Of a DNA stretch of 64,000 nucleotides, positions 752-59,961 are shown piece by piece. How positions within the stretch are numbered: the first letter of the stretch is position 1; every line of letters starts with the position of its first letter. The position numbers and the translations under genes were made by a program. Where the stretch lies: the IMG/VR virus record IMGVR_UViG_3300006167_000001; one strand, 5' to 3'. Source of the stretch: a virus (taxonomy: Duplodnaviria; Heunggongvirae; Uroviricota; Caudoviricetes). Below the pieces are notes generated by a model. It searched no databases. It was not told the DNA's origin and saw only the letters and a list, made by a program, of their open reading frames with translations.

Positions 752-807
752 TTTACACTATCCTTTCGCAGAAAAGACATCCCTTTTTATGAAGGGAGGT
801 TGTTCTG

Positions 808-2520: not shown

Positions 2521-2584
2521 AATTTACCACCTTTCGCAAAATTCGCAATGACTTTTACGGAATACTATTTTTGGAGGGATCAAC

Positions 2585-2833: not shown

Positions 2834-2898
2834 TCCAGCGAGGAGGGTTGCTAAAGCAGCGGCCCTTTCTCTTTCTTTTGGTTGCTTGATTGACACAA

Positions 2899-2927: not shown

Positions 2928-2990
2928 AGCAGTAAGCGTTTACCTGCGCTAAAAACGCAGGGCCTATTATGGAAAGGAGGACACTTTACT

Positions 2991-3179
2991 ATGGGACAAG
3001 GTTCCAACATTATCGAAAAGGAGGCGTTGGAAATGATGAATGTGGTTGAAGTAGCGAGAATGACCGAATGTCTCAAAGCATTGGGCTTGAGTGATGCGGA
3101 AATTATTATCGTTCAAAACTACATTGCGACCGGCGTCGGCTTGCCGACAAAGGAACCGGCCGAGAAAGAATCCGACTAA
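2991..3179 (+). CDS. hypothetical small protein
   Basis: 62-aa ORF preceded by TATTATGGAAAGGAGG (early motif variant). Confidence 0.4.
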   Translation: MGQGSNIIEKEALEMMNVVEVARMTECLKALGLSDAEIIIVQNYIATGVGLPTKEPAEKESD

Positions 3180-3313
3180 CCAACAAAGGGAGGGCTTGTG
3201 GAAATACGGGCTCTCCTTTTTTTCGTCATTCACACAAGATTTACATTTTCTTTTGTTTTCTCTGTTCGTTCCCTTTATTTCGCCCTGATTATCATATATG
3301 ACAGGTGTAGGAG

Positions 3314-3352
3314 TTGTCAAGTAAATCCTACACAATTTTGTAACTTAGGTTA
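3314..3352. promoter_or_regulatory. palindromic operator-like site overlapping a -35-like TTGTCA
   Basis: gtgtagga-N13-tcctacac perfect 8-bp inverted repeat upstream of the 3388 gene. Confidence 0.35.
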
Positions 3353-3387
3353 GAGGGTTTTTAATTTAGATTAGAAAGGAGTCGTGT

Positions 3388-3759
3388 ATGATTGCTGAGA
3401 ACATATCGACTTGCCCCAAATGCGGAGGACGGCTTAGATATTTCGACACAGTGAAACGCATTGTACGGACGAAAGCACGGATCACGGAATGGCATGACAT
3501 ACACAGGCTCCGCTGCACTGTCTGTGGCTCCTTACATCGCGAGTTACCTGAAGAGCTGTTCCCCTACAAGCAATACGAAGCTGAGGTTATTGTTGGCGTT
3601 TTAGAGGGTCTTATCACCTGCGAAACCATCGGCTTTGAGGACTATCCCTGTGAGATGACTATGTCCCGCTGGCTCGCTGAATTTACAGGCGCTGTTACGG
3701 AAAGGAGGTCGTACTATGAACGAGAAACGACTGATGGGCGAAATCGAGAAGCTGTGTAA
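3388..3759 (+). CDS. zinc-ribbon domain protein
   Basis: CPKCGG...CTVCG four-cysteine ribbon at the N-terminus. RBS AAAGGAG. Confidence 0.55.
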   Translation: MIAENISTCPKCGGRLRYFDTVKRIVRTKARITEWHDIHRLRCTVCGSLHRELPEELFPYKQYEAEVIVGVLEGLITCETIGFEDYPCEMTMSRWLAEFTGAVTERRSYYERETTDGRNREAV

Positions 3760-3940
3760 AGACGGTCATACGGATGCGCTACTCTACCTGTGCCGGAACT
3801 ACGGAGACGCGGCAATCGAAGGGTACAGACGTGGATACCGGAAAGCATTCTGGACAGGATTAGGCGTTTCCAGTCTGATCGTTACAGGTTGCATAGGAGC
3901 CATCGGGGTCATCATGAAACAGTACGGCAAGAGGAACTAA
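3716..3940 (+). CDS. small membrane protein
   Basis: 74 aa. TM segment GLGVSSLIVTGCIGAIGVIM. Overlaps the previous gene by 44 nt. Confidence 0.45.
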   Translation: MNEKRLMGEIEKLCKDGHTDALLYLCRNYGDAAIEGYRRGYRKAFWTGLGVSSLIVTGCIGAIGVIMKQYGKRN

Positions 3941-4007
3941 TCCAAGGAGGGAGCGGCTAAACGGCGGCTCTCTTCTTTTCGCCTATTTCACAGGTCCTTT
4001 TACGGAG

Positions 4008-4298
4008 GTGACTGTTATGGTAATCAGAAATAAAGAATACTACACTCAGTTTAACGAAGAGATGAAGCGAGACCATAGAGCTTTGGACTACCACATCCGA
4101 CAGGCAGAGAAGTACAAGCGTATCTACCAGCTCACAAAAGGGCGTTCGGGAGTATATGCCTTACTGAATAAATTTGCTAAGAGGATGAATCAGGTTCATT
4201 GTGATAAGGGAACTAAATTAGCGAAGCTGGACATGACGTGGTGCCTTTACGAAATGATGTACTTACAAAATTACATTCAGAAAGGAGAGGAGCCCTAA
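4008..4298 (+). CDS. hypothetical protein
   Basis: 96 aa. C-terminus KGEEP* is encoded within the terminator hairpin, with TAA in the loop. Confidence 0.5.
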   Translation: MTVMVIRNKEYYTQFNEEMKRDHRALDYHIRQAEKYKRIYQLTKGRSGVYALLNKFAKRMNQVHCDKGTKLAKLDMTWCLYEMMYLQNYIQKGEEP

Positions 4299-4310
4299 CA
4301 GGGGCTCTTC
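4286..4310 (+). terminator. hairpin terminator with stop codon in loop (early-module type)
   Basis: gagaggagccc-TAAca-ggggctcttc then ccTTTT. Prototype of a family repeated at ~3925, 5495, 5865, 6100, 6550, 7590, 8940, 9450, 10275 and 13165. Confidence 0.6.
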
Positions 4311-4468
4311 CCTTTTGCGCAGATTTTGCAACTTGTTTTGTGGAAAGGTGAACATATGCGAGACGGTATGTTCTGAAAAAGGTGTTGCCCTTGAAGGTTT
4401 AGCTGACGGCTATCGAGGTACGGAGCAACTTAATGGTTAAACGGCGAGCCGCCTGTCTTTCTTTTCTT

Positions 4469-4500
4469 CCGCAAATTTTGCAAATTGTATTATGGAGAGG
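4469..4500 (+). promoter_or_regulatory. conserved early intergenic motif CCGCA-N18-TATTATGGAGAGG
   Basis: ccgcaaattttgcaaattgtattatggagagg. Near-identical copies at 4598-4634, 5151-5182, 9506-9538, 10307-10340 and 14317-14348. Degenerate copies at 2955, 4845, 5285, 5540, 5890, 6135, 7325, 7630, 8195, 8975, 10005, 12962 and 59876. Confidence 0.6.
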
Positions 4501-4872
4501 AAATAAGGGAAACTTTGAAAAGCCAAATTGTAAGACATGGTCGGCCGTTACATTCGCAAGGATGTGGCCCCAATTCATGCCCTCTCTTTTTTTGTTTCCG
4601 CAGATTTTGCAAATCGTATTATGAGAAGGAGAGGAAATCCGACGGGTTGTGACCAAGCAACAAAATTGTTTGGTTTGGATGTTCGACTCATCCACGGCTC
4701 GTCTTTCTCTAAGAAAATGGATAGATGCGGGTGGAAATCCCGCGGTGAGACACGAAGGCGTACCGCCAAGTAATAACTTAATAAAAGATGGTACCCACCG
4801 GGCAACGGTTTTCGTTGGGCCGACCCTGAAGTCATTTTCTTTTTATTTTTCGCCAAATACTCAACGGCCTTT

Positions 4873-5088
4873 ATGGAGGTGATTGATATGTTTTTGAACA
4901 AAGTTGAATCAATGAGTACAGTCACAAAGAAAGTCATTGACGATTTTAATCGAATGGATGATAAACAATTTATGGCAAAATATTTTTGCAGTAAGCTGAC
5001 GTATGCAAAGCGAGTTGCGAAGTATGGTGATCCGTACATGAAAAGTCCACTCGCTAAAATCGGAAAATTTTTTTATAAAATATTCTGA
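4873..5088 (+). CDS. hypothetical protein
   Basis: 71 aa. Its start codon is the ATG inside the conserved TTTATGGAGGTG motif. Confidence 0.45.
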   Translation: MEVIDMFLNKVESMSTVTKKVIDDFNRMDDKQFMAKYFCSKLTYAKRVAKYGDPYMKSPLAKIGKFFYKIF

Positions 5089-5325
5089 GGTGAAATCTAA
5101 GGAGCATGAAATCACGGAGAAGGGGTGTATTCGCAGCACCTCTTTTCTTTTCGCGATTTTTACAAATCGTATTATGGAGAGGAAAAAAGAATACCATCGG
5201 GTATGAAAGTGAAGAGGCTAAACGTGTGAGTATAAAATCTTTGCGCACATTAGATGTCTACACGGAAAGTCGTCTCTCTTTATTTTTCGCCAAATACTCA
5301 ACGGCCTTTATGGAGGTGATATTTT

Positions 5326-5520
5326 GTGGAGGCCAAGAAACTCATTAGTGCGATTGGAACACTCGTTATTGTGGGGGCAGTATCAATGGCAGGAGCCGCA
5401 TTATGGACGAATGTTCTGGATGACAAAATCAAGCTGGTCCAAGCAAAGAAAGTGCATTCCAAATCAGATAAAGTTATTGTTGTTGACTTTAAGAAAGCAA
5501 GGAGGGAGACGGGCCGCTAA
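5326..5520 (+). CDS. small membrane protein
   Basis: GTG start 5 nt after GGAGGTGAT. TM ISAIGTLVIVGAVSMAGAALW. Confidence 0.45.
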   Translation: MEAKKLISAIGTLVIVGAVSMAGAALWTNVLDDKIKLVQAKKVHSKSDKVIVVDFKKARRETGR

Positions 5521-5565
5521 ACGCAGCGGCTCTTCCTCTTTTCCGCACGAATCTCCGCTTCCTTT

Positions 5566-5856
5566 ATGGATGTGAAAGTAATGAGACAAGTCATTCTTTA
5601 TGGAATTTCTGGAGCAAGTAGGGCCTATACAGTTCTGAATTACTTCTGTATCTACGAGGAATTCGTATCGATCAGCACTATCTTAGAGGAAGCGAGGCGA
5701 CTTCGGATGAGAAATCCGGATATCGAGCACGTTTACGCAATAGATAATCGATACGGGCTCCGCCGTGATTACAGGGAGAGCATGAAACGGAATAGTATCG
5801 AGAGCCATTACATTTTCAAGGATATTCTGGAAAGAGAAGGTATGCGAATTATTTAA
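5566..5856 (+). CDS. hypothetical protein
   Basis: 96-aa ORF after a motif copy. Confidence 0.5.
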   Translation: MDVKVMRQVILYGISGASRAYTVLNYFCIYEEFVSISTILEEARRLRMRNPDIEHVYAIDNRYGLRRDYRESMKRNSIESHYIFKDILEREGMRII

Positions 5857-5957
5857 CTACCGAGGAGGGTCCCGGCAGGGACTTTTCCTCTTTCCGCAGG
5901 AATGGCAGTTCCCTTTATGAGAGGCTTAGGCTTCATCTGTTATAAGGAGTGGAAACT

Positions 5958-6119
5958 ATGTTTACAAAATTGGAAATGGTCGGAGCTATTGCTATCAGCC
6001 TGTTCGGCGGATTCGCCATCGGCTACAGCAAGGCAAGAGAAATCTGTTTGCAAGCAATCATCACTGCTACCGGAGAGCAGAAGGAACCCGAGACAACCGA
6101 GAAAGAGGAGACGCCCTAA
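5958..6119 (+). CDS. small membrane protein (53 aa)
   Basis: ATG after GGAGTGGAAACT. Ends ...KEETP* inside a hairpin with TAA in the loop. Confidence 0.35.
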   Translation: MFTKLEMVGAIAISLFGGFAIGYSKAREICLQAIITATGEQKEPETTEKEETP

Positions 6120-6194
6120 ACAGGGGCTCTCCCCTTTTCGCACAAACCACAGCACCTTTTATGGAAGAATCCATATTTGAAAGGAGAAGCAACA

Positions 6195-6536
6195 ATGAGC
6201 ATGGAAAGGTTCAAAAGGTTTGTGGAGGACCATAAAAAGGAGCTGATTGCCACTACGGCGGTCGCTGGCGGGATCGTACTGGTGGTTTTCAGGTGCAAGC
6301 GCCACAGCGGGAAGATGGCCAAAGGCATATTCAGGAGGAAAGATATTTCGATCCCGGATGGCCTCAAGGTCTGGGACACGTCCTACCTCTGGGTGGAGGG
6401 AAAGTACCTGAACGCAATCGTCAACCGTATTCCCGTAGACGACCTGGGTGAACTGGGCAAGCAGTACATCAAGCATGGGCTCGCACAGCCTGGCGACATT
6501 GCAAGCGTCGTTATTGGAGTCGAGTATAACAAGTGA
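6195..6536 (+). CDS. hypothetical membrane-anchored protein
   Basis: RBS GAAAGGAG 8 nt before the ATG. TM TTAVAGGIVLVVF. Confidence 0.5.
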   Translation: MSMERFKRFVEDHKKELIATTAVAGGIVLVVFRCKRHSGKMAKGIFRRKDISIPDGLKVWDTSYLWVEGKYLNAIVNRIPVDDLGELGKQYIKHGLAQPGDIASVVIGVEYNK

Positions 6537-6649
6537 TTCTACCAAAGGTGGAGGCCGCTAACACAGCGGCTTTTGCCTTTTCACCGAGGTTGTTTGTACT
6601 TCAGCGTGGTTGTTAACTTAGAATAGCCGTTGAAAGGAGGTAGTCGTTA

Positions 6650-6901
6650 ATGAGTGAACAAGAATTTCATCCGGGTTCCGTTCCGGTTGCAGTAGCGGCC
6701 AGAGTCTATGGAAAAGATGCGTCTTGGGTTCGAGCCGGCATTGTGTCAGGATGGCTTCCGATTGGTAAGGCTACCCGAAACGGCAAACTGGTGACCAGCA
6801 TCAACGAGATAGACAGTCGGTACGGACGTATCAACTTTTACATCTCGCCCAAACTCCTCTATGAGGAAACCGGATTTTTATGGAAAGGAGAAAAGCGATA
6901 A
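6650..6901 (+). CDS. excisionase/AlpA-like HTH DNA-binding protein (paralog of 57922..58203)
   Basis: VAVAARVYGKDASWVRAGIVSGWLP resembles Xis/MerR-type HTH. ~75% identical to the downstream paralog, including the upstream TTAGAATAGCCGTTGAAAGGAGG. Confidence 0.55.
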   Translation: MSEQEFHPGSVPVAVAARVYGKDASWVRAGIVSGWLPIGKATRNGKLVTSINEIDSRYGRINFYISPKLLYEETGFLWKGEKR

Positions 6902-6902
6902 T

Positions 6903-7322
6903 ATGCCTACAAATGTACGACCCGAAGTATCCAAGAAGAATCCCTATTACATAGAGCGTGAGCGATACTACGAGCTGAAACACTTCTGCCGGCAGTATCC
7001 GATTTGGAAGAAGGCTCATGCGGCCCTTGATGGACTGAGCCGGCGACCTGCTGATTTGGAGTTGTTCAGCGAGACTGGAGAGACAAGCGATCCAACGTTC
7101 CGATGCGTAGCGGCCCGTGAACGCTACTCCAGATGGATGGGTATGGTTGAGCAGTGCGCTCGTGAAGCTGACCCCGAACTCTACAAGTATCTCATGAGCT
7201 ATGTTACGAAAGGAGATTGCTACAGCGTTCTCAAAATGCGCGACCATATCCCCTGCTGCAAGGATGTGTTCTACGAGACGGCCCGTAAGTTCTTTTGGCT
7301 CCTTAACAAAGTTCGAGACTGA
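6903..7322 (+). CDS. hypothetical protein
   Basis: 139 aa. RBS GGAAAGGAG. Confidence 0.5.
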   Translation: MPTNVRPEVSKKNPYYIERERYYELKHFCRQYPIWKKAHAALDGLSRRPADLELFSETGETSDPTFRCVAARERYSRWMGMVEQCAREADPELYKYLMSYVTKGDCYSVLKMRDHIPCCKDVFYETARKFFWLLNKVRD

Positions 7323-7390
7323 TTTGGCATCTTCCGCAGAAAATACATCCACCTTTATGGAAGACCCAATATTAGAAAGGAGTTTGACTT

Positions 7391-7567
7391 ATGAACCGTC
7401 GTTTTAACTGGATGGACAAGCCTGTCACCTGGGGAGGTTACTTTAAGCTGTGCGGCATTTGCACTGTGGTCGGAACGGCCATCGCTGCGATTGAGCTCAT
7501 CGTGTTTATGGAGCCCGCCTGGTGGAAGGCTACAAAGAACTTTGTGAGAAGACTGTTCGACAGATGA
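7391..7567 (+). CDS. small membrane protein
   Basis: 58 aa. RBS AGAAAGGAG. TM segment present. Confidence 0.4.
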   Translation: MNRRFNWMDKPVTWGGYFKLCGICTVVGTAIAAIELIVFMEPAWWKATKNFVRRLFDR

Positions 7568-7681
7568 ACTATCGGCATATAGGTCGGCCAAGAGGGAGGT
7601 TGTGGAAACACGGCCTCTTCTCTTTTTTATATTTTTGCTCGCACAATTTACAATGACCTTTATGGAAAGGAGGTTCGATTT

Positions 7682-7861
7682 ATGACTTACAAGCAAATTG
7701 AGGCCAGCAGAGAATTGCGGCTTTGGATCGGGCAGGTAATCGTACCGGCTGTCAGCGTGACGGCGGTAGTGCTTGCTAATCCTGACGTGAGAAATGCGGC
7801 TAAGCAAAAGCTGGACAGCATCAAGCAGAAGTTCCAGACCAAAAAGATCAGGGTCGTGTAG
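7682..7861 (+). CDS. small membrane protein
   Basis: 59 aa. RBS GGAAAGGAGG. Confidence 0.4.
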   Translation: MTYKQIEASRELRLWIGQVIVPAVSVTAVVLANPDVRNAAKQKLDSIKQKFQTKKIRVV

Positions 7862-7976
7862 CAGCGACCCGTTCTTTTATATTTTCCGCATATAGGTGAC
7901 TGTAATGTGTGGTAAATTGGTATTCTAAAAAATTCCCGGGTGGAAAATTCTGAAAAACAATTTTAGGAGGAATCCT

Positions 7977-8195
7977 ATGGAAATCGTAATCGCACTCGTA
8001 GCCGTCCTTATTGGCTTTATCATCGGTCGAGTCCTTCCCAGAGAGCGCCCCCTTGGCGATTTGAGGGTTGATCGGTCTGATCCAACTTGCGAGCCCTATC
8101 TTTTTCTTGAGTTGGGTACGGATGTCCATAACATCATGAGTAAGCGGTATGTTACATTCCGCATCAAAGTCGAAAACTTCCTGCCGCACGAATAA
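7977..8195 (+). CDS. small membrane protein
   Basis: 72 aa. RBS TAGGAGGAAT. Confidence 0.45.
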   Translation: MEIVIALVAVLIGFIIGRVLPRERPLGDLRVDRSDPTCEPYLFLELGTDVHNIMSKRYVTFRIKVENFLPHE

Positions 8196-8245
8196 CATCC
8201 GCTATTATGGAGCCCAACTCTAATATTTGAAAGGAGTAAAGCAAT

Positions 8246-8932
8246 ATGGCAGAGATCAAAAGTTTGTTGGACGGCGTGATCGAGCAGGAAATCCAAAACG
8301 TGGAGGCCCTGAGCTCTGGAACTGACGAGAAGTCGAAGGCAATCCAGAATCTCGCAACCCTGCACAAACTCCGTATCGAGGAGATCAAGGCCGAGACCGA
8401 GGCGGAAGAGAAGCGTGAACGCCGGGTTATGGACAGCGAGCAGCGTAAAGCGGAACTCGCTCTGAAAGAAAAGCAGGCTACCCAGCAGGAGACCCAGCAT
8501 CAGGCTGAGCTCTCTATCAAGGAGCGCCAGGTGGATAGTGCCGAGGCAGAACGTAAGATGAAGGACGAACAGTTCAAAGCTGAACTCGCCCTGAAGAAGC
8601 GTCAAGCCGACGGCGACACCGCTGAGCACAAGTTGAAGGAGAAGCAGAGTGAGACTGAGTCTGGGCATAAGGGTGCCGAGCTTGCTCTGAAGGAGCGGGA
8701 GCTTGACAGCAAGGATGCTGACCGTACCCAGGAGGGAGAGCTTCAGAAGCGCCAGGCCCGGGATCAGATGGTCGACCGGTGTGTGAGAGCTGGTGTGGCG
8801 GTTGGAGAACTGGTACTGCCGTTGGTATTCTACGGCATCTGGATGAACAAGGGTTTCAAGTTCGAGGAAACCGGTTCGTTCACGTCGACCACATTCAAGA
8901 ACTTGCTGAATCGCTTCAGACCCACGAAGTAA
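8246..8932 (+). CDS. coiled-coil repeat protein with C-terminal TM anchor
   Basis: Tandem AELALKE(K/R)Q heptad-like repeats (x4). C-terminal hydrophobic VAVGELVLPLVFYGIW. Confidence 0.55.
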   Translation: MAEIKSLLDGVIEQEIQNVEALSSGTDEKSKAIQNLATLHKLRIEEIKAETEAEEKRERRVMDSEQRKAELALKEKQATQQETQHQAELSIKERQVDSAEAERKMKDEQFKAELALKKRQADGDTAEHKLKEKQSETESGHKGAELALKERELDSKDADRTQEGELQKRQARDQMVDRCVRAGVAVGELVLPLVFYGIWMNKGFKFEETGSFTSTTFKNLLNRFRPTK

Positions 8933-9097
8933 AGGGTAAGGCTACAAAAGCGGAGAGGGCGCGGAGATTTCGCGCTCTTTTCGTTTTCGCCATTTCTACA
9001 GCGCACTTTATGAGGAAGAAGAGCTCTTTTACCTCGACTATTAGCCAAGAGTGGAGTATAATACTATACAACACTTCTGGACTACATCAGGAGGTAA

Positions 9098-9432
9098 TGA
9101 AAGTGCGTAAAAAGGGTAAAGAGATCATTCGGCCGGTAGGAGTTGAGATCAGGGAGTATCTCAATGACGGCTGGGGTATCTGCAACAACTGCGGAGCGCT
9201 TATGGATGAGGAAATCAGGGATAGAATTGGAGTATTCACCTGCCCGGCATGTGGCTGGGAGTGCGATGTTATGGATTATGAGTACGAGGAGGAAGACACT
9301 ATGGAACTCGTACAGGATGAAAGAGGTGACGAGTACCTGATTCCGAGAGATGATATGCCGCCCGCGGGGTGCAGAGCTTGTGGAGGTCCATATCCCTACT
9401 GCAAAGCATCTTGCAAGATGTATGACGACTAA
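9098..9432 (+). CDS. zinc-ribbon protein
   Basis: CNNCG...CPACGWEC plus CRACGGPYPYCKASC. Confidence 0.5.
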
Positions 9433-9647
9433 GCATTATCAAAATGGAGGAGAGTCCTGGAAAAGCCGGGGCTCTTTCTCTTTATCTCTGAACTTTGTGA
9501 GGAGATTCGCAGATTTTGCAAATCGTATTATGGAAAGGAAGTATGAGAGACGCATGTTGTTGGTGAAAACCCAACCATCTACGAGGAGTGCGATCCTCCC
9601 TCGTAGCCTTTTCTTTTTATTTTCTTGGAGGGATTGTGATGCGCTAT

Positions 9648-9998
9648 CATTTCGAGAAGCCGGCTGTTTCGCTGTCGATGTATGGTCGGCGTTACATTTG
9701 CAACCATCCGGTGTATGACAGTTGCACCTTGTTCGAGATTGATGAAAAGGGTTTAGCTGTGATACAGCAGAGATTTGATCCTAAGACAAAGAGTACATCC
9801 TGGACAGAGGTAGACGCCTATTTGACCGACGTTTTATATTTGCACCCCAAGTTCAAGGAGTTCTTTGACAGTCGGGCCAGAACTTGTACGGACGGCCTCT
9901 ACCCCACTGTAACAATTCGGCAAATCATGTGGGCTTTGAAAATGAAACCTCTGCCGAAGCAGACATGGGAGACTGTGTTCGATCGAAGAGAGATTTAG
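9648..9998 (+). CDS. hypothetical protein
   Basis: 117-aa ORF after a motif/RBS. Confidence 0.5.
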   Translation, partial: HFEKPAVSLSMYGRRYICNHPVYDSCTLFEIDEKGLAVIQQRFDPKTKSTSWTEVDAYLTDVLYLHPKFKEFFDSRARTCTDGLYPTVTIRQIMWALKMKPLPKQTWETVFDRREI

Positions 9999-10055
9999 CG
10001 CTAATTCCACAGCTCCTATTATGGATGCCAATACCTACGAAAGGGGTTAAGGAGT

Positions 10056-10271
10056 ATGGATGAGATGAAACTTGAATCGAAATGGATAAGAGGAATTGTG
10101 TCAAAACTTATCAAAAAAATCCTGCGTGATAAATCAGGCTGCAACGTAGATGTTCAGCTTAATAATTTCCGCACGACTGTTATTGATGAGAAGACGCACG
10201 TTCATCTGGATATTGAACTGGATCTCAGCAAAGATGAAATTGACAAACTGTTAAAGGGCATTGGTCTTTAA
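10056..10271 (+). CDS. hypothetical protein
   Basis: 71 aa. RBS AAGGAG. Confidence 0.45.
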   Translation: MDEMKLESKWIRGIVSKLIKKILRDKSGCNVDVQLNNFRTTVIDEKTHVHLDIELDLSKDEIDKLLKGIGL

Positions 10272-10339
10272 AGGCAGAGCCGCGTAACAGCGGCTTTTGT
10301 CTTTGTTCCGCAGATTTTACAAATCGTATTATGGAGAGG

Positions 10340-10411
10340 AGACAGTTAGCTCAGTTGGTAGAGCGCAACCTGAAATGGTTGAGGTCATCGGTTCGAGTCC
10401 GATACAGCCTC
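10340..10411 (+). tRNA. tRNA-Phe(GAA)-like element with aberrant anticodon loop (possible pseudo-tRNA)
   Basis: Canonical D arm TA-GCTC-AGTTGGTA-GAGC and T arm ATCGG-TTCGAGT-CCGAT. Anticodon stem CAACC/GGTTG encloses only 6 nt (TGAAAT; GAA at 10372-10374). Acceptor stem has 2 mismatches (A3-C70, A5-A68). Directly preceded by the conserved early motif. Confidence 0.5.
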
Positions 10412-10445
10412 TCTAATTTTTTCGTCGAGGAAAGGAGAAACAGGA

Positions 10446-10631
10446 ATGAGAAAAGAAATGAAGCCGATTCTCATCGGCGCATTGACCGCAGGCGTCATCA
10501 TTGCGGTTGGTGTTGGGTTTCATGCATGGACCATCAAAACTATCCCTTATTCCTATCGTCAGAATCTCTTAGATGCCGTTGACTATCTCGCCGGCAAAAA
10601 TGTTTTCAACAGAGTCGATTCATTACAGTAA
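10446..10631 (+). CDS. small membrane protein
   Basis: 61 aa. TM ILIGALTAGVIIAVGVGF. Confidence 0.4.
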   Translation: MRKEMKPILIGALTAGVIIAVGVGFHAWTIKTIPYSYRQNLLDAVDYLAGKNVFNRVDSLQ

Positions 10632-10654
10632 AACAATGAAAGGAGAAAATCAAA

Positions 10655-11113
10655 ATGGAAATTAAAATCGTAGGAGAAGTCAAGTTCAGAAATCGGGCCG
10701 TCAAGGTCTATGGGGATTTGGATGCGCCCCTCTTCAAGGCTGCGGACGTCGCCGATCTGGTGGAGTACGGCGAGGGTAACGTCTGGAACCTTGTTCGTCT
10801 CTGCGAGGAGGACGAGCATATGCTCCTTCCGCTCGTAGTCGCTGGGCAGAAGCGGCAGGTAACCTTCATCACCGAGACCGGCCTCTACAACGTCCTATCC
10901 CAGAGCAGAAAACCTCTCGCCAGAGCATGGCGGCGTGTCGTTCACGAGGAGCTGATTGCGCTCCGGCGGTCCCAGGGTAAGAACGTTGCCGAGAAGTTCG
11001 ACGAGTGGGATCACCTGGCCGACAACATCTACTTCGATGAGGAGCGGGGCTGTCTGATGCGCTCTGTCACCGTTCAGGGCGGCGACGTTGAGCAGGTTCC
11101 GTATGAGCCCTAA
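10655..11113 (+). CDS. Bro-N domain antirepressor-like protein
   Basis: FRNRAVKVYGDLDAPLFKAADVADLVEY...GLYNVLSQSRKPLARAWRRVVHEELIALRR matches the BRO N-terminal/KilA-N architecture. Confidence 0.75.
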   Translation: MEIKIVGEVKFRNRAVKVYGDLDAPLFKAADVADLVEYGEGNVWNLVRLCEEDEHMLLPLVVAGQKRQVTFITETGLYNVLSQSRKPLARAWRRVVHEELIALRRSQGKNVAEKFDEWDHLADNIYFDEERGCLMRSVTVQGGDVEQVPYEP

Positions 11114-11141
11114 CTGATATTCTGCTGAAAGGAGAAAAATC

Positions 11142-11615
11142 ATGGGAAAGTTCATTAAAACTGCGCTGGTATTCATAGGAGGTATGACTGCCGGTGGCTA
11201 TTGTGTCGTAAATGCAGCTCTTAAGTTTTCAACGTTTACTACTGCGCTCAAAGAGGCCATCACAAAGAAGACCGTTGAGGTAGTGTATGGTGAGGAAACC
11301 AAAAAATTCAGTCAAGGGGCCGCGTATCATAGCGCCTATCACAGCGGCCACAAATTTCCGAATTGCTGCTTAACTTATTGCGACGATATCGTCTTTCAGA
11401 CTCGTGAAGATGCTGAAAACGCTCTTGCTACGATGCATGACATCATCAAGCAGTATGGTATTGTCAGTTTGGCGGATGTCTATGACATTATCGGGAAAAT
11501 TTCTCCGTCTTATGCCGCAAATAGGTATGGCTGGAGATCGCTTGATAAAGCGAAAGTGGTTCGATGCCGAGACGGATACTTCATTGAAATCCCGAAAGCA
11601 GTGGAAATCAAATAA
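11142..11615 (+). CDS. membrane protein with conserved C-terminal domain (paralog of 14762..15379)
   Basis: N-terminal TM. C-terminal FQTREDAENAL...QYGIVSLADVYD...ANRYGWRSLDKAKVVRCRDGYFIEIP is shared with 14762. Confidence 0.5.
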   Translation: MGKFIKTALVFIGGMTAGGYCVVNAALKFSTFTTALKEAITKKTVEVVYGEETKKFSQGAAYHSAYHSGHKFPNCCLTYCDDIVFQTREDAENALATMHDIIKQYGIVSLADVYDIIGKISPSYAANRYGWRSLDKAKVVRCRDGYFIEIPKAVEIK

Positions 11616-11617
11616 CC

Positions 11618-11980
11618 ATGAAACCCGAAATTGGTTATGACCATATTGTGATAGGTTCTTACATTGATGATCTTCTCAAGGATGTTGAGTGGAACTTAAA
11701 ACGTACTGCACTGCGAGATCCATACTTCAAGCAATTAAGCGTTGAGAAATTTGCGCTTGAAACATTACTCCAGGAAATCTTCGAGTATAACGGCATTGTT
11801 ACGCCGATAGAGGTACTTGAACGTTTTGCCCAGGAAACCGAACGATGCATTGTTGACAGCCATGACCCGAACAGCAGCTATACTTTTGAAGTGTCGAGAG
11901 ACACAGCGATATCCATTTTAGACGGACTCTATTTCGGATATTTGGAAGGAGAAAAATGCGGTGGATTTGAAAAACCATAG
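11618..11980 (+). CDS. hypothetical protein
   Basis: 120 aa. ATG overlaps the previous stop. Confidence 0.5.
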   Translation: MKPEIGYDHIVIGSYIDDLLKDVEWNLKRTALRDPYFKQLSVEKFALETLLQEIFEYNGIVTPIEVLERFAQETERCIVDSHDPNSSYTFEVSRDTAISILDGLYFGYLEGEKCGGFEKP

Positions 11981-12136
11981 AAACCTCTGGAACGATGTCC
12001 TTTATGGAACTCCGACAGCATCCTTAGCGGCTGCGAGCAAGCTTTATGATCTCGGTGAAATGAGCAAAAAGACATTCCAAGTCCTTGTCCTCGCAGCGGC
12101 CATCGAATCTACAGATACAAAAGGAGGTAAACGGAA

Positions 12137-12961
12137 ATGAAGCCTAAGCAAGGTCTGGTAAAGCAGACCGGAAAAGCCTTAAAAAAGGCGTCGCCGACAA
12201 TCTTGAGTATTCTCGGAGTTGTCGGCGTGGTTACAACGGCGGTTTTGGCCGTCAAAGCTACACCCAAAGCCCTTGAACGCATTGCAGACGCTAAAGAGGC
12301 TAAAAACCTCGAAAACGGCAAAGATTTGACCCGAATGGAGACGGTAGCAGCTTGCTGGCAATGCTATGTCCCTGCTGCCGCCACTGGAATCGCCACAATC
12401 GTGTGCATTATGGGCGCAAATGTCCTAAATCGGCGTCAACAGGCCTCTCTCACAAGTGCCTATACTCTACTTAACCGAACGTACCAGGACTATACAAAAT
12501 CGGTCAAGAACGTCTTCGGCGAAGAAGGTCATAAGCGCGTCTTGGAGGATATGGCCATTGAGCGGGTTCCTGAGAATCACACAATCTATACCGAAGGCAT
12601 GTTTGAATCTACTACCTTGGATTTTTGCATCCCCGAGGAGGAGCATCTGTTTTACGATGTTTACTCCAACCGGCAATTTGCTTCTACCATCGGAAAGGTG
12701 CTTCAGGCCGAATATCATCTGAACAGGATGTTCGCTCTGAATGGGAATGCCTCGCTCAATGACTTCTATAAGTATCTTGGACTCGATCCTGTTCCTGAAG
12801 GAGACGACATTGGATGGTGGGTCGATTTCGATAATGAGGCATATTGGGTCGAGTTCAATCATGCTGTCTCTTACATTGATGACGGGCCTGAACATCCGCA
12901 AGTCGAGTGCCTCATTATTGAGTTCCCGCAGCCGCCTGGTCTTCCGCCTCCCGAGGAGTAA
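12137..12961 (+). CDS. membrane protein, paralog family member 1 (VKATPKAL...CYVPAAxTG)
   Basis: 274 aa. Shares an N-terminal ~110-aa module with 13550 and 16028. Confidence 0.6.
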   Translation: MKPKQGLVKQTGKALKKASPTILSILGVVGVVTTAVLAVKATPKALERIADAKEAKNLENGKDLTRMETVAACWQCYVPAAATGIATIVCIMGANVLNRRQQASLTSAYTLLNRTYQDYTKSVKNVFGEEGHKRVLEDMAIERVPENHTIYTEGMFESTTLDFCIPEEEHLFYDVYSNRQFASTIGKVLQAEYHLNRMFALNGNASLNDFYKYLGLDPVPEGDDIGWWVDFDNEAYWVEFNHAVSYIDDGPEHPQVECLIIEFPQPPGLPPPEE

Positions 12962-13007
12962 TCCGCAGAAACAACACACTCTATTGTGGAAAGGAGGGTG
13001 AGGCTTC

Positions 13008-13178
13008 ATGGATAAGAAAGCTATCTTTAGAGTAATGTCCATGATCGGCATGGTCCTTGGGGCGGTGGGAACGCTGCTGTCCAACTGGGCCGACGATCGG
13101 GAACTTGACATGACGATTGACGAAAAGATCGATGAAAAACTTGCCGCCCGTGAAAGCGAAGAAGGTGAGGAGCCCTGA
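13008..13178 (+). CDS. small membrane protein ending in hairpin-encoded EEGEEP*
   Basis: RBS GAAAGGAGGG. TGA lies in the hairpin loop gaggagccc-TGAca-gggactcttc. Confidence 0.4.
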   Translation: MDKKAIFRVMSMIGMVLGAVGTLLSNWADDRELDMTIDEKIDEKLAARESEEGEEP

Positions 13179-13215
13179 CAGGGACTCTTCCCTTTTGGAC
13201 GTTGAAGAGTTGCAT

Positions 13216-13518
13216 ATGAACGAACGGGCAATTATGGCTCTGATGCGGATGCTGGGCATGTATGAAGATGCTCCACGTTCAGACTGGCCTCAGCATGAAC
13301 TTGAAGAAATCGCGTTCTCAAGATGCGCGATTGAAGAGGTTCTGCAACTGGTTTGGGATCATCCGTGGACCTTGGCATCCGACACCATCGAAGACTTCGC
13401 GCTAAAGATGGAGCTCTACAAGGATTCGTCTGTTACGGACGACCAAAAGCGGATATTTTCAGTTTTGGCGGAAACTGCCTGGGGAGTTCTGCAAGAGATT
13501 GAACCGCTTGAAAAGTGA
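13216..13518 (+). CDS. hypothetical protein
   Basis: ~100 aa from the first ATG after the hairpin. Confidence 0.4.
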   Translation: MNERAIMALMRMLGMYEDAPRSDWPQHELEEIAFSRCAIEEVLQLVWDHPWTLASDTIEDFALKMELYKDSSVTDDQKRIFSVLAETAWGVLQEIEPLEK

Positions 13519-13549
13519 CCTGTAAAATACATTTGAAAGGAGAAGCATC

Positions 13550-14314
13550 GTGAACAAGCAAACCTTCGTGAAGGCTCTCAAAGATGTTCCGAAAATCCTG
13601 AAGAAGCACAGTCCTGAGCTTCTGACAGGCATCGGTATTGCGGGGATGATCTTCACGACCATCACAGCCGTCAAAGCAACACCCAAGGCCCTCCAGCTCG
13701 TGGATGAGCGAGAAATCAAGGAGGGAAAACGCCTGACCAACTCGGAGATCATCAAGACTACCTGGAAGTGCTATGTCCCCGCAGCCGTGACCGGTGTGTG
13801 CTCTATTGGTTGCCTGATTGGCGCCAGTTCAGTCAATGCCCGGCGAAATGCGGCACTCGCCACCGCCTACACCATCTCTGAAACTGCCCTCAAAGAGTAT
13901 AAGGAGAAGACTGTTGAGGTCGTTGGCGAAAAGAAGGAACAGGCGATTCGCGATGCAGTTGCCAGGGACAAGCTGGAGAAGGCCCAGGTGACCAGTCGTG
14001 AGTTCATCATCACCGGCAAAGGGGAAACTCCCTGTTTTGACCCGCTCACCAATTCCTGCTTCAAGGCGGACATTGAGATCCTGCGGAAGGCGGAAAACAT
14101 CCTGAATAAACGGATGCGGGACGAGATGGTGATAACTGTCAACGATTTCTTACAAGAAATCGGCCTCGACCCGTGTGACGATGCCATCGGCGAAAACATG
14201 GGCTGGGATATTGATAAGGGGTACATCGACTTGGATTTCAGCTCGCAGCTGGTCGAGGGCATTCCTTATCTTGTCATCGGACATCACAATCCGCCCCGCT
14301 ACATCGGACGGTAG
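13550..14314 (+). CDS. membrane protein, paralog family member 2
   Basis: GTG start after GAAAGGAG. N-terminal module VKATPKALQ...WKCYVPAAVTG. Confidence 0.6.
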   Translation: MNKQTFVKALKDVPKILKKHSPELLTGIGIAGMIFTTITAVKATPKALQLVDEREIKEGKRLTNSEIIKTTWKCYVPAAVTGVCSIGCLIGASSVNARRNAALATAYTISETALKEYKEKTVEVVGEKKEQAIRDAVARDKLEKAQVTSREFIITGKGETPCFDPLTNSCFKADIEILRKAENILNKRMRDEMVITVNDFLQEIGLDPCDDAIGENMGWDIDKGYIDLDFSSQLVEGIPYLVIGHHNPPRYIGR

Positions 14315-14385
14315 CGTCCGCAAAAAATGCAAATCGTATTATGGAGAGATCCACACTAAAATCTTTAATAAAGGAGTAATTCAAA

Positions 14386-14682: not shown

Positions 14683-14761
14683 ACAGCGAGGATCGCCGGC
14701 GGGGAGAGTACCTACAACAGGTGCTTTCCCCTTTTTCAATAAGTAACAAGGAGGAACGACC

Positions 14762-28513: not shown

Positions 28514-29755
28514 ATGGGACGCATAAATCTCCGTGACTACCAGCTCGACGCTATCAAGCAGATGAAAAACGGATGCATCCTGTGCGGCGGCGTCGGAAGC
28601 GGTAAATCCCGCACTTCCCTTGCATACTACTACGATTTGCAAGGTGGCAATCTTCTCGCATCGGATGAAGTCGCCATGAAGAATCCGCAAAATCTCTATA
28701 TCATCACGACAGCCCGGAAACGGGATACCTGCGAGTGGGAAGGGGAACTGGCTCCGTTCCTCCTCTCTACTCATCCTGAGTGCAACTACTACAAGAACAC
28801 TGTGGTTGTGGACTCATGGAATAACATTGGAAAATACACAGAAGTCAAGAACGCATTCTTTATATTTGACGAGCAGCGGGTAGTTGGTTATGGCGCGTGG
28901 ACAAAAGCCTTTCTAAAGATCACCAAGGCCAACAACTGGATTCTACTGTCCGCTACACCTGGGGACACTTGGCAGGACTATATTCCTGTCTTCATTGCCA
29001 ACGGGTTCTATCGCAATAAAACTGACTTTGTCGACCAGCATGTCAACTATGACTGGCGGGCTAAATACCCGAAAATCGACAGCTATCGAAACACTGGTCG
29101 TTTAATTCGGTTACGCAACAGCATCCTCGTAAACATGGACTTCAAGCGGCAAACCGTTTCTCATCACGAGGACATCCCCGTTCCGTATGATATTTCCAAA
29201 TACAAAGACATCATGCGGAAACGTTGGAATCCTTGGGAGGACCGTCCAATCGAAACGGCAGCGGAATTGTGTATGGCACTTCGGAGAGTTGTCAATTCTG
29301 ATGACGCCCGGTCGGTTGCTGTGCTCGAAATCTTGGAGGATCATCCCAAGGCCATCATCTTTTACAGCTACGACTATGAACTGGAGATTCTCCGCTCCCT
29401 CGGATATTCGGAGGGTACGGAGGTCGCAGAGTGGAACGGCCATAAGCATCAAGAGATCCCGACCGGAGACAAATGGGTTTACTTGGTTCAGTACACTGCT
29501 GGCTGCGAGGGGTGGAATTGCATCACGACTGACACCATTATATTCTACTCTCAGCAGTATTCGTATAAGGTGGCCACGCAGGCTGCTGGACGAATTGACC
29601 GCCTCACAACACCGTACCATGACCTGCACTACTATCATCTGAAAAGCTTCTCTGGAATTGACCTCGCCATCAGCAAGGCTCTCAAACAGAAGAAGAATTT
29701 CAACGAGGGTAAGTTTGTGGGATGGACTACAAAGCCAATGCCAAGAGCCGCATAA
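28514..29755 (+). CDS. SF2 (SNF2/DEAD-like) helicase
   Basis: RBS GAAAGGAGG. Walker A GGVGSGKS. Motif II FIFDEQ. Motif III LSATP. Motif VI QAAGRIDR. Confidence 0.8.
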   Translation: MGRINLRDYQLDAIKQMKNGCILCGGVGSGKSRTSLAYYYDLQGGNLLASDEVAMKNPQNLYIITTARKRDTCEWEGELAPFLLSTHPECNYYKNTVVVDSWNNIGKYTEVKNAFFIFDEQRVVGYGAWTKAFLKITKANNWILLSATPGDTWQDYIPVFIANGFYRNKTDFVDQHVNYDWRAKYPKIDSYRNTGRLIRLRNSILVNMDFKRQTVSHHEDIPVPYDISKYKDIMRKRWNPWEDRPIETAAELCMALRRVVNSDDARSVAVLEILEDHPKAIIFYSYDYELEILRSLGYSEGTEVAEWNGHKHQEIPTGDKWVYLVQYTAGCEGWNCITTDTIIFYSQQYSYKVATQAAGRIDRLTTPYHDLHYYHLKSFSGIDLAISKALKQKKNFNEGKFVGWTTKPMPRAA

Positions 29756-29828
29756 TTTGCAAGTCCTATTACGGAGGAGATGCTACATAGCGTCTTCTTT
29801 TATATTTCATGGAAGGAGGCGAAATGCC

Positions 29829-45550: not shown

Positions 45551-46512
45551 AGGAAACTCAATGCACTCATTGTGACCACCTTCAGGTTTGCTCCCTCAAA
45601 GAGCAATTCATAGCAGCACAGAACGCTGTAAACAGATTATCGGTAAATCTTGGTGACCGAACCACGAAAGATCTCCGTAACTTCGATTGGATTAAGAAGG
45701 TAAAGCTGGAATGCGAGCACTTTGCGGCAAAGCGGCCGACTCAACGTGATATTTCAACTGAGAATCAAGCTCGCGGTACTTTGCCTTATCCTTCCGAAGG
45801 CGGAAAGTTCATGGAGAACCCTACATGACCAAACAAGAAAAAATTGTTGTCTCAGCGTATACAGGTGTCCTGATGTGTGATTTAGACGCTCTGCAAAATT
45901 ATATTCAGGACAAGCTGGGGTGGCCGGTTTGGACGCATGAGCTCCCCTCTAAGGAAGTTTTGGAGGAGATCAGGGAAAAGTCCAAGGATGACTTTATCTC
46001 TATCTGTTTGAGTAACGGCAATGATCTGATAAGCCGCTCAGCTCTCCTGAAAGAAATTGGCGATCCTGACGACGGAATGGTATTGCCGGCAAAGCATGGA
46101 ATCATAGATTTAGTCAAAAGAGCTCCCGCTATGTGAATTGATATTTCCTCAGTCCTATGCTACAATGATCTTATGCACATTCAAGGAGGTGTTAAGGTCA
46201 TGGCCGAAGAGATCAAAAGTGGAACTCAATCTTCTGCGCAGAAAAAGCAACCCCCTTTATGGAAGGAGGTGAATGACATGAGCGACAAGGAACAAATGAC
46301 CATGCTAATCGACATCTACACCGATTTGCAGCGAATCAAATCTGCGGAAGATCGCGACAAGGAGATCGACTACCAGATTAAAGCGGCAAAGGCGAAGTTG
46401 GAGGCATTTGGCGTTGTAACCGAAAATCTGGACATTCACTGATTCCAAACCGGGAGAGGGCCTACGGAAACGTGGGCTCTCTTCTTTTATATTTTTAAGG
46501 AGGAATCCTAAT

Positions 46513-59560: not shown

Positions 59561-59961
59561 CCAGGAGGTGAAATATTATGGCCTCTAAAAAATCGAATGG
59601 CGGAAGGAAGGCCATTGCTCCTTCTGTGATATCTGCCTTGACAATAGCCCCGGCCATAATCAAAGCGATTGAGGAGCTAATGGATAAGTTTCCCCTTCTA
59701 TGATTGCCTGAACCTGTTGACAGATGGAACAGAAGTAGATATCAAAGGCTATCTTTCTTCTGAAGACACAGCATTCGCAATGAAGGTAAAAGAGTCGATG
59801 GAACGATCTTAACCCCTCCTGCCAAAATTATATTTTCAGAACAGAGACGCCGATTATGACGTCTCTGTTTTTCTTTCCGCCAAAAAAACAGACTCTTTTA
59901 TGGAGAGAAGAGGGAATGTGTCAAACTTTTTCTGTTATTTCTGTTGAAAGGAGGCCTTTTC

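Follow-up and report, generated by a model that had tools for sequence, protein, structure and literature searches.

Introduction

Four things that meet in the locus described here are already known separately: promoters specific to a phage-encoded RNA polymerase (RNAP), composite promoter-terminator cassettes, an intergenic repeat in Arthrobacter cluster AU phages, and the prediction of the polymerase itself. The locus lies in a 64,000-nt stretch of the Caudoviricetes record IMGVR_UViG_3300006167_000001, hereafter the window, in which position 1 is the first letter. It contains a 26-nt motif, repeated on one strand and concentrated among small early genes, and a gene for a single-chain two-barrel RNAP. 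We think it fairly probable that the motif is the cognate promoter of this polymerase, that the hairpins between the genes are terminators or attenuators, and that turnover of the gene cassettes is a by-product. No link of the polymerase with the cluster AU repeat, and no account of the cross-phylum geometry, the start site or the cassette dynamics in these phages, was found in the searchable literature, where family members are labeled just putative polymerase or "HTH DNA-binding protein" (HTH, helix-turn-helix).

The closest characterized precedent is Thermus phage P23-45. It encodes two single-chain two-barrel RNAPs (gp96 vRNAP and gp64 nvRNAP) with their own conserved promoters upstream of pre-early and early genes (10.1101/2022.12.01.518664), and the assignment there was supported by the same presence/absence logic. 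The motif sequences differ, and no HTH modules have been reported in P23-45, whereas the polymerase family of the window has three. Cappable-seq and ChIP-seq served to map the promoters of P23-45 (10.1101/2022.12.01.518664), whereas those proposed here are predicted from sequence, and the family of the window spans phages of Firmicutes and Actinobacteria.

YonO of the Bacillus prophage SPbeta is also similar in being a single chain of about 100 kDa with a DxDGD loop, encoded next to late genes in a phage of a Gram-positive host (PMC5467207). It has one mapped start, in a late operon, whereas the window has 26 sites, mainly before early-region genes; the YonO promoter was stated as still to be determined (PMC5467207). 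The motif further resembles T7-type promoters, which are about 25 bp long, highly conserved, multi-copy and strand-specific, and often accompanied by hairpin terminators. In T7-type promoters an A/T-rich block reaches to -1 and is followed by a purine-rich start, as would be the case here. With a slash marking the start, a T7 promoter reads TATA/GGGAGA; compare TTAT/GGAGAGGA here. The enzymes differ in fold (right-hand against two-barrel), and the motif here would reach back to -24 in discrete blocks rather than form one contiguous element.

The promoter early stem-loops (PeSLs) of T4-type phages combine a sigma-70-like early promoter with a stem-loop terminator, lie among orphan genes and recombine between copies (PMC2839356, PMC4122927). 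The arrangement in the window resembles them: putative composites of a terminator and a promoter, about 60-100 bp in size, separate small early genes that are mostly orphans, a Shine-Dalgarno sequence (SD) lies at the 3' edge, and the elements occupy a plastic region where they mark breakpoints of insertions, deletions and replacements between close relatives. However, the host polymerase reads the PeSL promoter, which follows the sigma-70 consensus of E. coli, whereas the elements here have a three-block geometry that tracks a phage polymerase. T4 is also unrelated, window-type phages being siphoviruses of Gram-positive hosts. The promoter part of the window elements is not sigma-70-like, so they are not strict PeSLs, and the analogy would hold for architecture and evolutionary behavior but not for promoter type.

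In Arthrobacter cluster AU phages, a 32-bp intergenic repeat flanks the sole rearranging genes and was called a boundary sequence (10.1101/2020.01.10.891226). Judged by its sequence, this repeat is very probably the same element as our motif; in phage Circum it likewise lies between small genes, just after the tail genes. The preprint reads it as a recombination substrate only, and makes no link to a polymerase, a start site or Firmicutes phages.

Results

A repeated, strictly oriented motif

We number the motif from its first conserved C (C1); the element ends at G26. Its layout is C1-G2-C3, r11-C12-A13, T19-w-T-T-A-T24, G25-G26, with spacers of 7 and 5 nt between the blocks CGC, rCA and TwTTAT and usually a T-rich stretch on the 5' side. 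Alignment on TTATGG fixed the register of the candidates. A first-pass annotation, made by a model that saw only the DNA letters and a list of reading frames, had reported a recurring motif between 2945 and 14350, and the motif is indeed there. The literal 26-mer given in that annotation finds 5 sites with at most 3 mismatches (0 in shuffles), and a position weight matrix (PWM) finds 28 sites on the + strand, 26 of them convincing and 2 dubious. The same matrix finds 0 sites on the - strand, and shuffles average 0.66 with both strands summed. The matrix was trained on the window's own copies; independent checks on it come from the lack of hits on the - strand, from the shuffles and from the relatives treated below.

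Twenty-one of the 26 copies lie inside 2945-14350, an 11.4-kb region of small open reading frames (ORFs), at a median spacing of 324 nt; the others end at 792, 2560, 29774, 46262 and 59903. The last of these had been announced at 59876 and was found at 59878. The six strongest copies stand where the annotation put them, with its figure of more than 90% identity overstated: they are 88-97% identical to their own consensus and 75-91% identical pairwise. Similarly, the CGC of the proposed CGCAG block is conserved and the full block is not, the next base being A, C or G.

In 9-10 copies an SD starts 0-4 nt after G25 and is the sole credible SD of the next gene, in agreement with the claim that the 3' end of the motif doubles as a ribosome-binding site (RBS). 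Five motif-headed units (behind the copies ending at 4343, 4495, 4624, 5177 and 9533) contain no ORF with a credible RBS, and these are of the kind noticed at first as "empty" cassettes. The strongest, near-consensus copies head four of these non-coding units (4495, 4624, 5177, 9533) and the unit of a tRNA-like RNA.

Other readings of the motif were tried and rejected. As a sigma-70 promoter it has no -35 hexamer at 16-18 nt and in most copies reads CTTTAT, with no A at the second -10 position; a sigma-70 consensus scan picked up no motif copy except by overlap. As a sigma-54 promoter (TGGCAC-N5-TTGCA) it has TTGCA in the six strongest copies only, and the spacing is wrong. The reading as a repressor operator conflicts with the asymmetry of the motif, its strict orientation and its constant position with respect to gene starts.

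A single-chain polymerase with a predicted two-barrel fold

The RNAP-like protein of the first-pass annotation is real, and its predicted fold is of the two-barrel type. The catalytic DxDGD loop is present as SGADFDGD, invariant in alignments of 10 and of 69 homologs. The predicted structure, built from library representatives of the family, resembles solved two-barrel (double-psi beta-barrel) polymerases, with QDE-1 as the best structural match; the titles of QDE-1 entries in the PDB indicate that RNA and DNA templates are both used. Pfam reports HTH families only on the polymerase (RdRP was not reported at E<=0.01), and searches of PDB sequences with the protein and with a 10-sequence profile gave HTH and helical-repeat matches only. 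There is a weak PHROG match to phrog_8308, a second 847-position family (E=1.4e-5).

The polymerase family is abundant in metagenomes, with 907 clusters at 50% identity (E below 1e-30), and ranges over phages of Clostridia, Bacilli and Actinobacteria. The polymerase is also the sole DNA-binding protein encoded by the genes that the whole supercluster of these phages shares.

Motif and polymerase occur together

When 80 IMG/VR loci around polymerase homologs (61-95% identity, 1.31 Mb) were scanned with the window matrix, 161 sites were found on the + strand and 0 on the - strand. Nearly every locus that extends far enough has one copy about 900 bp upstream of the polymerase gene, matching the window copy that ends at 59903. 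In Faecalibacterium phage FP_oengus (53% identity) there are 14 copies, all of them on the + strand. Their consensus is ACGCGAAAAAT-rCAG-N5-CTTTATGG, with the spacing unchanged, and they lie in the early region, before the nuclease-polymerase operon, and directly against a tRNA-like gene.

Intergenic versions in the same register are found in Arthrobacter phage Circum (tCGCGTAAATTACAnGGGyTATAAT) and Lactococcus phage CHPC971 (CACAwGTTTTACAnnnnCTATAGT). A pattern built on geometry only gave +/- counts of 20/0 in the window, 7/1 in FP_oengus, 9/0 in Circum, 7/0 in CHPC971 and 3/0 in Streptomyces phage Scap1 (61% GC), against a background in shuffles of about 0.2 per strand. A metagenomic contig (37% GC) whose polymerase is 45% identical has CGCGACAGAATCACTCCCTATTATAGAAGAG just upstream of its nuclease genes; another contig with a divergent polymerase (L092) ends upstream of the operon and was left out of motif scoring. 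In total, motif and polymerase co-occur in six lineages and three host groups. In the clades nearest the window the three blocks are invariant, and the CGC-CA spacer drifts with the polymerase clade.

Three genomes served as controls. The Faecalibacterium prausnitzii phages FP_Epona and FP_Lugh, in which the polymerase is not annotated, have no motif copy, and none was found in 45 kb of SPbeta, the yonN-yonK gap included. The earlier suggestion that the copies are candidate promoters for the RNAP-like protein is thus supported by the two-barrel fold, by co-occurrence in six lineages and by absence of the motif from same-host phages without the polymerase.

In CHPC971 a 448-nt gap 5' of the polymerase gene (L084 40423-40870) has three direct repeats of ctatcacgaaaaaacttcgggaaaacttcgggatt, and the geometry pattern found no motif copy in it, so the lactococcal lineage may control its polymerase gene differently. 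Directly 3' of the window polymerase lies an 87-aa gene (63577-63840, MARCALTTIDNPYDPF...) that is kept in FP_oengus, Circum, Scap1 and CHPC971. Its product is a possible partner of the polymerase and may correspond to the "conserved hypothetical protein" in the supercluster core as published.

RNAs behind the motif and the predicted start site

One copy abuts a tRNA-like element rather than an ORF, as had been noticed. The element fits the tRNA covariance model RF00005 with 47.5 bits, against a gathering score of 29. Its stem CAACC/GGUUG is a perfect 5 bp, and the loop UGAAAU has 6 nt instead of the canonical 7 of an anticodon loop. The loop is also 6 nt in the close relative L088 (8196-8270) and in FP_oengus (L081 2935-3006); in a second relative, L089 (8816-8891), it is 7 nt and ARAGORN calls a tRNA-Phe with anticodon AAA. 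The "anticodon" given by ARAGORN has 4 bases in the window and L088 and 2 in FP_oengus. The leader from TATGG to the tRNA body measures 9 nt in the window, 6 nt in L089 and 4 nt in FP_oengus. Between phages, changes on one side of the anticodon stem are compensated on the other. These leader lengths and stem changes across relatives argue that the RNA is real. It may be something other than a decoding tRNA, possibly a decoy or a processing signal.

Several features bear on where transcripts would begin. In FP_oengus, the 5' end that ARAGORN gives to the tRNA-like RNA falls on motif position 26. In the tRNA unit and two non-coding units, GGAGAGG from G25 pairs with CCUCUCU just 5' of the terminal U-run; in the two non-coding units the pairing joins the first 7 nt to the last 7-8 nt ahead of the U-run. 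From the tRNA 5' end, the embedded SDs (+1 to +8) and this 5'-3' terminal pairing, we infer that +1 is G25 or G26, provided that each of these RNAs starts at the motif next to it. If the start instead followed the sigma-70 pattern, about 7 nt past T24, the tRNA-like RNA of FP_oengus would be truncated and 9-10 window genes would lose their sole SD.

The five non-coding units are candidate small RNAs. An Rfam search of the "empty" cassettes matched no family, and folds of four of the units (the 4624 unit being outside the four) did not differ significantly from shuffles (z +0.2 to -1.6). The motif region itself forms no conserved RNA structure.

Cassette turnover between close relatives

Blastn of the window against L088 and L089 gave collinear blocks broken by insertions, deletions and replacements. 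The segment 4592-5279 is missing from L088, and its ends lie at most 8 nt from the motif copies that start at 4599 and 5288. L088 also has an insertion of about 780 bp bordered by duplicate copies of motif 9999, and further breaks fall on motifs or hairpins at 4326, 10283, 10302 and 9483. Of the 21 breakpoints, 12 fall no more than 10 nt from an element, where a uniform null predicts 2.9, and 0 of 20,000 randomizations reached 12. Since this null covers genes as well as intergenic DNA, some of the excess comes from breaks that simply lie between genes. The check proposed in the first-pass annotation, cassette presence or absence in related genomes, therefore turned up indels at motif and hairpin boundaries. 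Its idea of PeSL-like shuffling units survives as far as shuffling goes, given the breakpoints and the cluster AU preprint, and fails for strict PeSLs on account of the promoter.

Copies 4851 and 5288 share about 37 identical nt (about 4845-4882 against 5282-5319; tttttcgccaaatactcaacggcctttatggaggtga), which indicates a recent duplication or gene conversion between the two cassettes.

Hairpins between the cassettes

Seventeen hairpins with T-rich tails between 2.8 and 14.8 kb were curated by hand from several hairpin scans and then rechecked. The hairpin family GAGGAGCCC-YTAACA-GGGGCTCTTCC, said to follow nearly every small ORF, is in fact rare, with 2 near-identical copies (4287, 13167) and 1 related copy (6104). 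The other hairpins have unrelated stems and GAAA-type loops. A stop codon of the upstream gene in the loop, described as the rule, is seen in 5 of the 17 (4296, 5518, 6117, 7859, 13176); in 11 the stop lies about 9-30 nt upstream of the hairpin, and the remaining one (9579-9606) comes after a non-coding unit. This feature is incidental. A strong hairpin is present within about 35 nt upstream in only about half of the motif copies, so the reported coupling of hairpin and motif is overstated. After several hairpins the T-runs are short and interrupted.

The loop CTAACA, CTAAACA or CTGACA recurs in window hairpins (4287-4310, 6108-6131, 10276-10297, 13166-13189), and the same loop type is found in terminator-like intergenic hairpins of Circum and Scap1 (L083, L086; ccccTAACacggg). 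FP_oengus hairpins mostly have GAAA loops, with one CTAACAA loop just 5' of the polymerase operon. A loop kept in phages of different phyla hints that the hairpin is a specific signal for termination or processing rather than a generic one.

Table 1. Motif copies (C1 to G26), units, hairpins and associated genes in the window. PWM, 26-mer and geometry name the searches that found a copy.
Feature	Coordinates	Strand	Remarks
Motif copy	767..792	+	Upstream of ORF 808-1029; SD 4 nt after G25; PWM, geometry
Motif copy	2535..2560	+	Upstream of ORF 2585-2833; PWM
Motif copy	2947..2972	+	Upstream of ORF 2991-3179; 29 nt 3' of sigmaA-type promoter 2890-2918; PWM, geometry
Degenerate motif copy	3675..3700	+	Upstream of ORF 3716-3940; SD 3 nt after G25; PWM
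Motif copy	3980..4005	+	Upstream of ORF 4017-4298; SD begins at G25; PWM
Degenerate motif copy	4318..4343	+	Unit without credible ORF, to about 4470; synteny break 4326; PWM, geometry
Strong motif copy	4470..4495	+	Heads non-coding unit to T-run at about 4598; 26-mer, PWM, geometry
Strong motif copy	4599..4624	+	Heads non-coding unit to about 4850; left edge of segment missing from L088; 26-mer, PWM, geometry
Motif copy	4851..4876	+	Upstream of ORF 4888-5088; SD begins at G25; PWM
Strong motif copy	5152..5177	+	Heads non-coding unit to about 5287; 26-mer, PWM, geometry
Motif copy	5288..5313	+	Upstream of ORF 5326-5520; right edge of segment missing from L088; same sequence as copy 4851; PWM
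Motif copy	5544..5569	+	Upstream of ORF ending at 5856; PWM
Motif copy	5895..5920	+	Upstream of ORF 5958-6119; PWM, geometry
Motif copy	6139..6164	+	Upstream of ORF 6195-6536; PWM, geometry
Motif copy	7335..7360	+	Upstream of ORF 7391-7567; PWM, geometry
Motif copy	7640..7665	+	Upstream of ORF 7682-7861; SD 3 nt after G25; PWM, geometry
Motif copy	8185..8210	+	Upstream of ORF 8246-8932; PWM, geometry
Motif copy	8988..9013	+	Upstream of ORF 9097-9432; sigmaA-like site 9034-9062 in between; PWM, geometry
Strong motif copy	9508..9533	+	Heads non-coding unit to about 9632; 26-mer, PWM, geometry
Motif copy	9999..10024	+	Upstream of ORF 10065-10271; doubled around L088 insertion of about 780 bp; PWM, geometry
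Strong motif copy	10309..10334	+	Directly 5' of tRNA-like gene; 26-mer, PWM, geometry
Motif copy	12964..12989	+	Upstream of ORF 13008-13178; SD 3 nt after G25; PWM, geometry
Motif copy	14319..14344	+	Upstream of ORF 14386-14682; PWM, geometry
Motif copy, less certain function	29749..29774	+	Helicase/ligase junction; hairpin 29773-29800 and T-run directly 3'; PWM
Motif copy	46237..46262	+	Upstream of ORF 46278-46442; SD 2 nt after G25; PWM, geometry
Motif copy	59878..59903	+	Heads nuclease-nuclease-polymerase operon; position kept in relatives; PWM, geometry
tRNA-like RNA behind motif	10340..10411	+	Anticodon stem, 6-nt loop; Rfam 47.5 bits, ARAGORN, compensatory stem changes
Five units without credible ORF	4343-4470, 4495-4598, 4624-4850, 5177-5287, 9533-9632		
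Terminator-like hairpin and T-run	2842..2868	+	
Terminator-like hairpin and T-run	3192..3215	+	
Terminator-like hairpin, loop TAAAC	3947..3974	+	Before motif 3980
Terminator-like hairpin GAGGAGCCCTAACAGGGGCTCTTC	4287..4310	+	Loop holds stop codon of ORF 4017-4298
Terminator-like hairpin	5116..5148	+	Before motif 5152
Terminator-like hairpin	5508..5535	+	Loop holds stop codon
Terminator-like hairpin	5864..5887	+	Before motif 5895
Terminator-like hairpin, loop AAACA	6108..6131	+	Loop holds stop codon
Terminator-like hairpin	6553..6578	+	No strong motif 3' of hairpin
Terminator-like hairpin, GAAA loop	7594..7619	+	Before motif 7640
Terminator-like hairpin	7851..7870	+	Loop holds stop codon
Long terminator-like hairpin	8947..8987	+	Abuts motif 8988
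Terminator-like hairpin	9449..9477	+	L089 synteny break at 9483
Terminator-like hairpin	9579..9606	+	End of non-coding unit begun at 9533
Terminator-like hairpin, loop GTAACA	10276..10297	+	Before motif 10309; synteny break 10283
Terminator-like hairpin	13166..13189	+	Nearly same as hairpin 4287; loop holds stop codon
Terminator-like hairpin and T-run	14701..14731	+	
Two small genes	59962-60279, 60276-60839	+	Placed like endonuclease and exonuclease genes of FP_oengus, Circum and Scap1; gene calls, synteny
905-aa single-chain two-barrel RNA polymerase	60843..63560	+	Two N-terminal and one C-terminal HTH units; proposed motif reader

Discussion

The motif, its strand bias and geometry, the polymerase fold, the co-occurrence in lineages and the breakpoints at the elements are direct observations. 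In the reading we favor, the polymerase would recognize the motif as its promoter, extending from about -24 to +2, and +1 would be the first G after TTAT. The recognition blocks would lie about one helical turn apart, with CGC at -24 to -22, rCA at -14 to -12 and TwTTAT at -6 to -1, and the three HTH units of the polymerase may contact them. The A/T-rich third block (TATAAT or TATAGT in other lineages) is probably the melting region. Transcription would start on a purine (GG here), and the initial GGAGG would also serve as RBS in many cassettes. Most cassettes would end in a G+C-rich hairpin and T-run that acts on the polymerase as a terminator or attenuator, resulting in short, largely autonomous units that give small proteins, the tRNA-like RNA and about five short non-coding RNAs. 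A conserved copy would head the nuclease-nuclease-polymerase operon, toward the cos site and the late genes. Because the elements form direct repeats, cassettes would be deleted, duplicated and swapped by homologous recombination from one copy to another.

There are several points that weigh against this reading. The start-site argument needs the tRNA-like and SD-bearing RNAs to start at the motif and not to be processed from read-through transcripts. DNA-dependent activity of the 905-aa polymerase is assumed, and the enzyme QDE-1 depends primarily on RNA templates. No sequence similarity to YonO was detected: hhalign of the 10-sequence profile against it (L090:6360-8876, - strand) gave a probability of 0.2%. 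Literature searches found no transcription study of the supercluster phages and nothing on a promoter in phage 1706. In SPbeta, YonO transcribes late genes, whereas the late structural genes here have no motif copy in the IMG/VR loci, FP_oengus or the geometry-scanned phages; that they are reached by read-through from copy 59878 across cos is speculation. Host sigmaA might use the third block as found in the phages of Arthrobacter, Streptomyces and Lactococcus, since it matches the -10 hexamer there perfectly or almost so (TATAAT, TATAGT). Finally, the polymerase gene itself lies behind a motif copy and canonical sigmaA-type promoters are scarce, with almost none in the early regions of FP_oengus and Scap1. 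This leaves the first polymerase molecules unexplained; virion delivery, read-through from the promoter at 2890 and weak recognition by the host are the options.

The main rival explanation is that the motif is a promoter for the host RNAP, used via sigmaA or via a phage activator like T4 MotA/AsiA, and that the phage polymerase has another job, such as late transcription. We regard this as unlikely, but it deserves the most serious consideration. The -10-like third block of Circum, Scap1 and CHPC971 would suit it, but copies in the window and FP_oengus mostly read CTTTAT, without the near-universal A at -11, and have no -35 hexamer. A host-type start about 7 nt after T24 would put CGC near -30, where an activator box would be expected; the same start would cut into the tRNA-like RNA of FP_oengus and strip the SD from the 9-10 genes that have no other. 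With sigmaA promoters almost absent from the FP_oengus and Scap1 early regions, transcription there needs some starter, and motif-free late genes fit a YonO-like late role for the polymerase (PMC5467207). However, the motif is kept in phages whose hosts differ widely in sigma factors and GC content, two other F. prausnitzii phages lack it, and no other DNA-binding protein is conserved across the supercluster.

It is considerably less likely that the motif acts at the RNA level, as a site where a host or phage ribonuclease cuts long read-through transcripts of a few host promoters, at or near the hairpin-motif junction, or as a translation enhancer in the 5' untranslated region. Strict strand specificity and a fixed place just upstream of the SD would be equally expected, yet a translational role does not cover the tRNA-like RNA and the five ORF-free units. 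The strong sigmaA promoter at the head of the array (2890) and the short, interrupted T-runs make read-through plausible in the window, but FP_oengus and Scap1 have no evident upstream host promoter for such precursors. Blocks spaced by about 10 bp and an A/T-rich block before a purine start would be typical of double-stranded promoter recognition, and the RNA offers neither conserved structure at the motif nor units that fold more stably than shuffles.

A purely recombinational role, in which the repeats are boundary sequences kept for modular exchange with no part in transcription, is the least probable: the 12 of 21 breakpoints at elements, the clean deletion between copies 4599 and 5288, the insertion between duplicated copies and the same conclusion in the cluster AU study (10.1101/2020.01.10.891226) speak for it, but breakpoints are expected between genes anyway, identity alone suffices for recombination, and it leaves unexplained the block geometry kept across phyla with drifting spacers, the strict orientation and fixed distance to SD and tRNA starts, and the single conserved copy before the polymerase operon, where there is no shuffling.

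If the motif is the promoter of the phage polymerase, a larger proposal can be made, which we offer tentatively and regard as possible rather than probable. The polymerase family may be a self-contained, sigma-free system in which three HTH modules read the three blocks and one chain of about 100 kDa finds, melts and transcribes its promoters and stops at its own hairpins, acting early, from the virion or otherwise, and largely independently of the host polymerase. Early or virion-borne action is suggested by the near lack of host-type promoters in several members, and the CTAACA loop common to Faecalibacterium through Streptomyces phages points to the hairpins as the polymerase's own terminators. 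If true, this would be a portable, cross-phylum orthogonal expression system, an analog of T7 on a two-barrel fold, and the motif would be the first promoter to be defined for single-chain RNAPs of the YonO-like class. A compact orthogonal set of promoter, polymerase and terminator for Gram-positive and anaerobic gut bacteria could possibly be derived from it.

Single-chain two-barrel RNAPs are thought to resemble the ancestor of all cellular RNAPs, and the question of how they find promoters with no sigma or TFB-like factor is made directly testable by a consensus of 26 copies with clear blocks, a predicted start and natural variants in six lineages. The motif as promoter would also account for a repeat that was earlier read solely as a recombination signal, and promoter-terminator cassettes could be drivers of early-region gene turnover in these phages.

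Other features of the window

Almost every gene of the window lies on the + strand. Among the products identified are a tyrosine integrase (1070-2305, - strand), a 1,379-aa primase-polymerase, a helicase, a ligase, NrdD and DUF6353 paralogs. The window is collinear with FP_oengus, where the order is integrase, small early genes, DUF6353 proteins, polymerase, two nucleases, a large "RNA-dependent RNA polymerase" and structural genes. Two IMG/VR contigs (84-86 kb) are close relatives, and the window maps to the right-hand end of such a genome. A megablast of 25 kb against deposited phages gave a 216-bp polymerase fragment as the sole match.

The window ends (63900-64000) inside a conserved element, gggtataggggg...caccccctgtgcat, that is kept 3' of the polymerase gene in FP_oengus and the IMG/VR relatives. 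The final 60 nt of the window match a conserved element that in Circum makes up the physical right terminus, which probably places the end of the window at cos or right beside it.

A host-type promoter at 2890-2918 on the + strand (TTGACA-17-TATTAT with TG) stands at the head of the array. Together with a second near-perfect sigmaA-type promoter on the - strand (3320-3291), kept in L088 and L089, it converges across gene 2991-3179, near the integrase. The pair is a candidate lysogeny switch and possibly the sole strong host-type entry into the early array. Farther along, copy 29749 has a 12-bp hairpin and T-rich tail immediately 3' (29749-29800); running into a terminator-like structure, it could be an attenuator or a decayed copy.

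The DUF6353 paralogs are probably three (12137-12961, 13550-14314 and 16028-16990). Pfam confirms the last, and the identity of the first two is suggested by synteny and N-terminal similarity; FP_oengus likewise has three DUF6353 genes in the same relative position. NrdD with an ATP-cone (51482-53737) is followed by a Cys-rich ORF of 227 aa (53865-54548), which could encode the NrdD activase and would fit a strictly anaerobic host.

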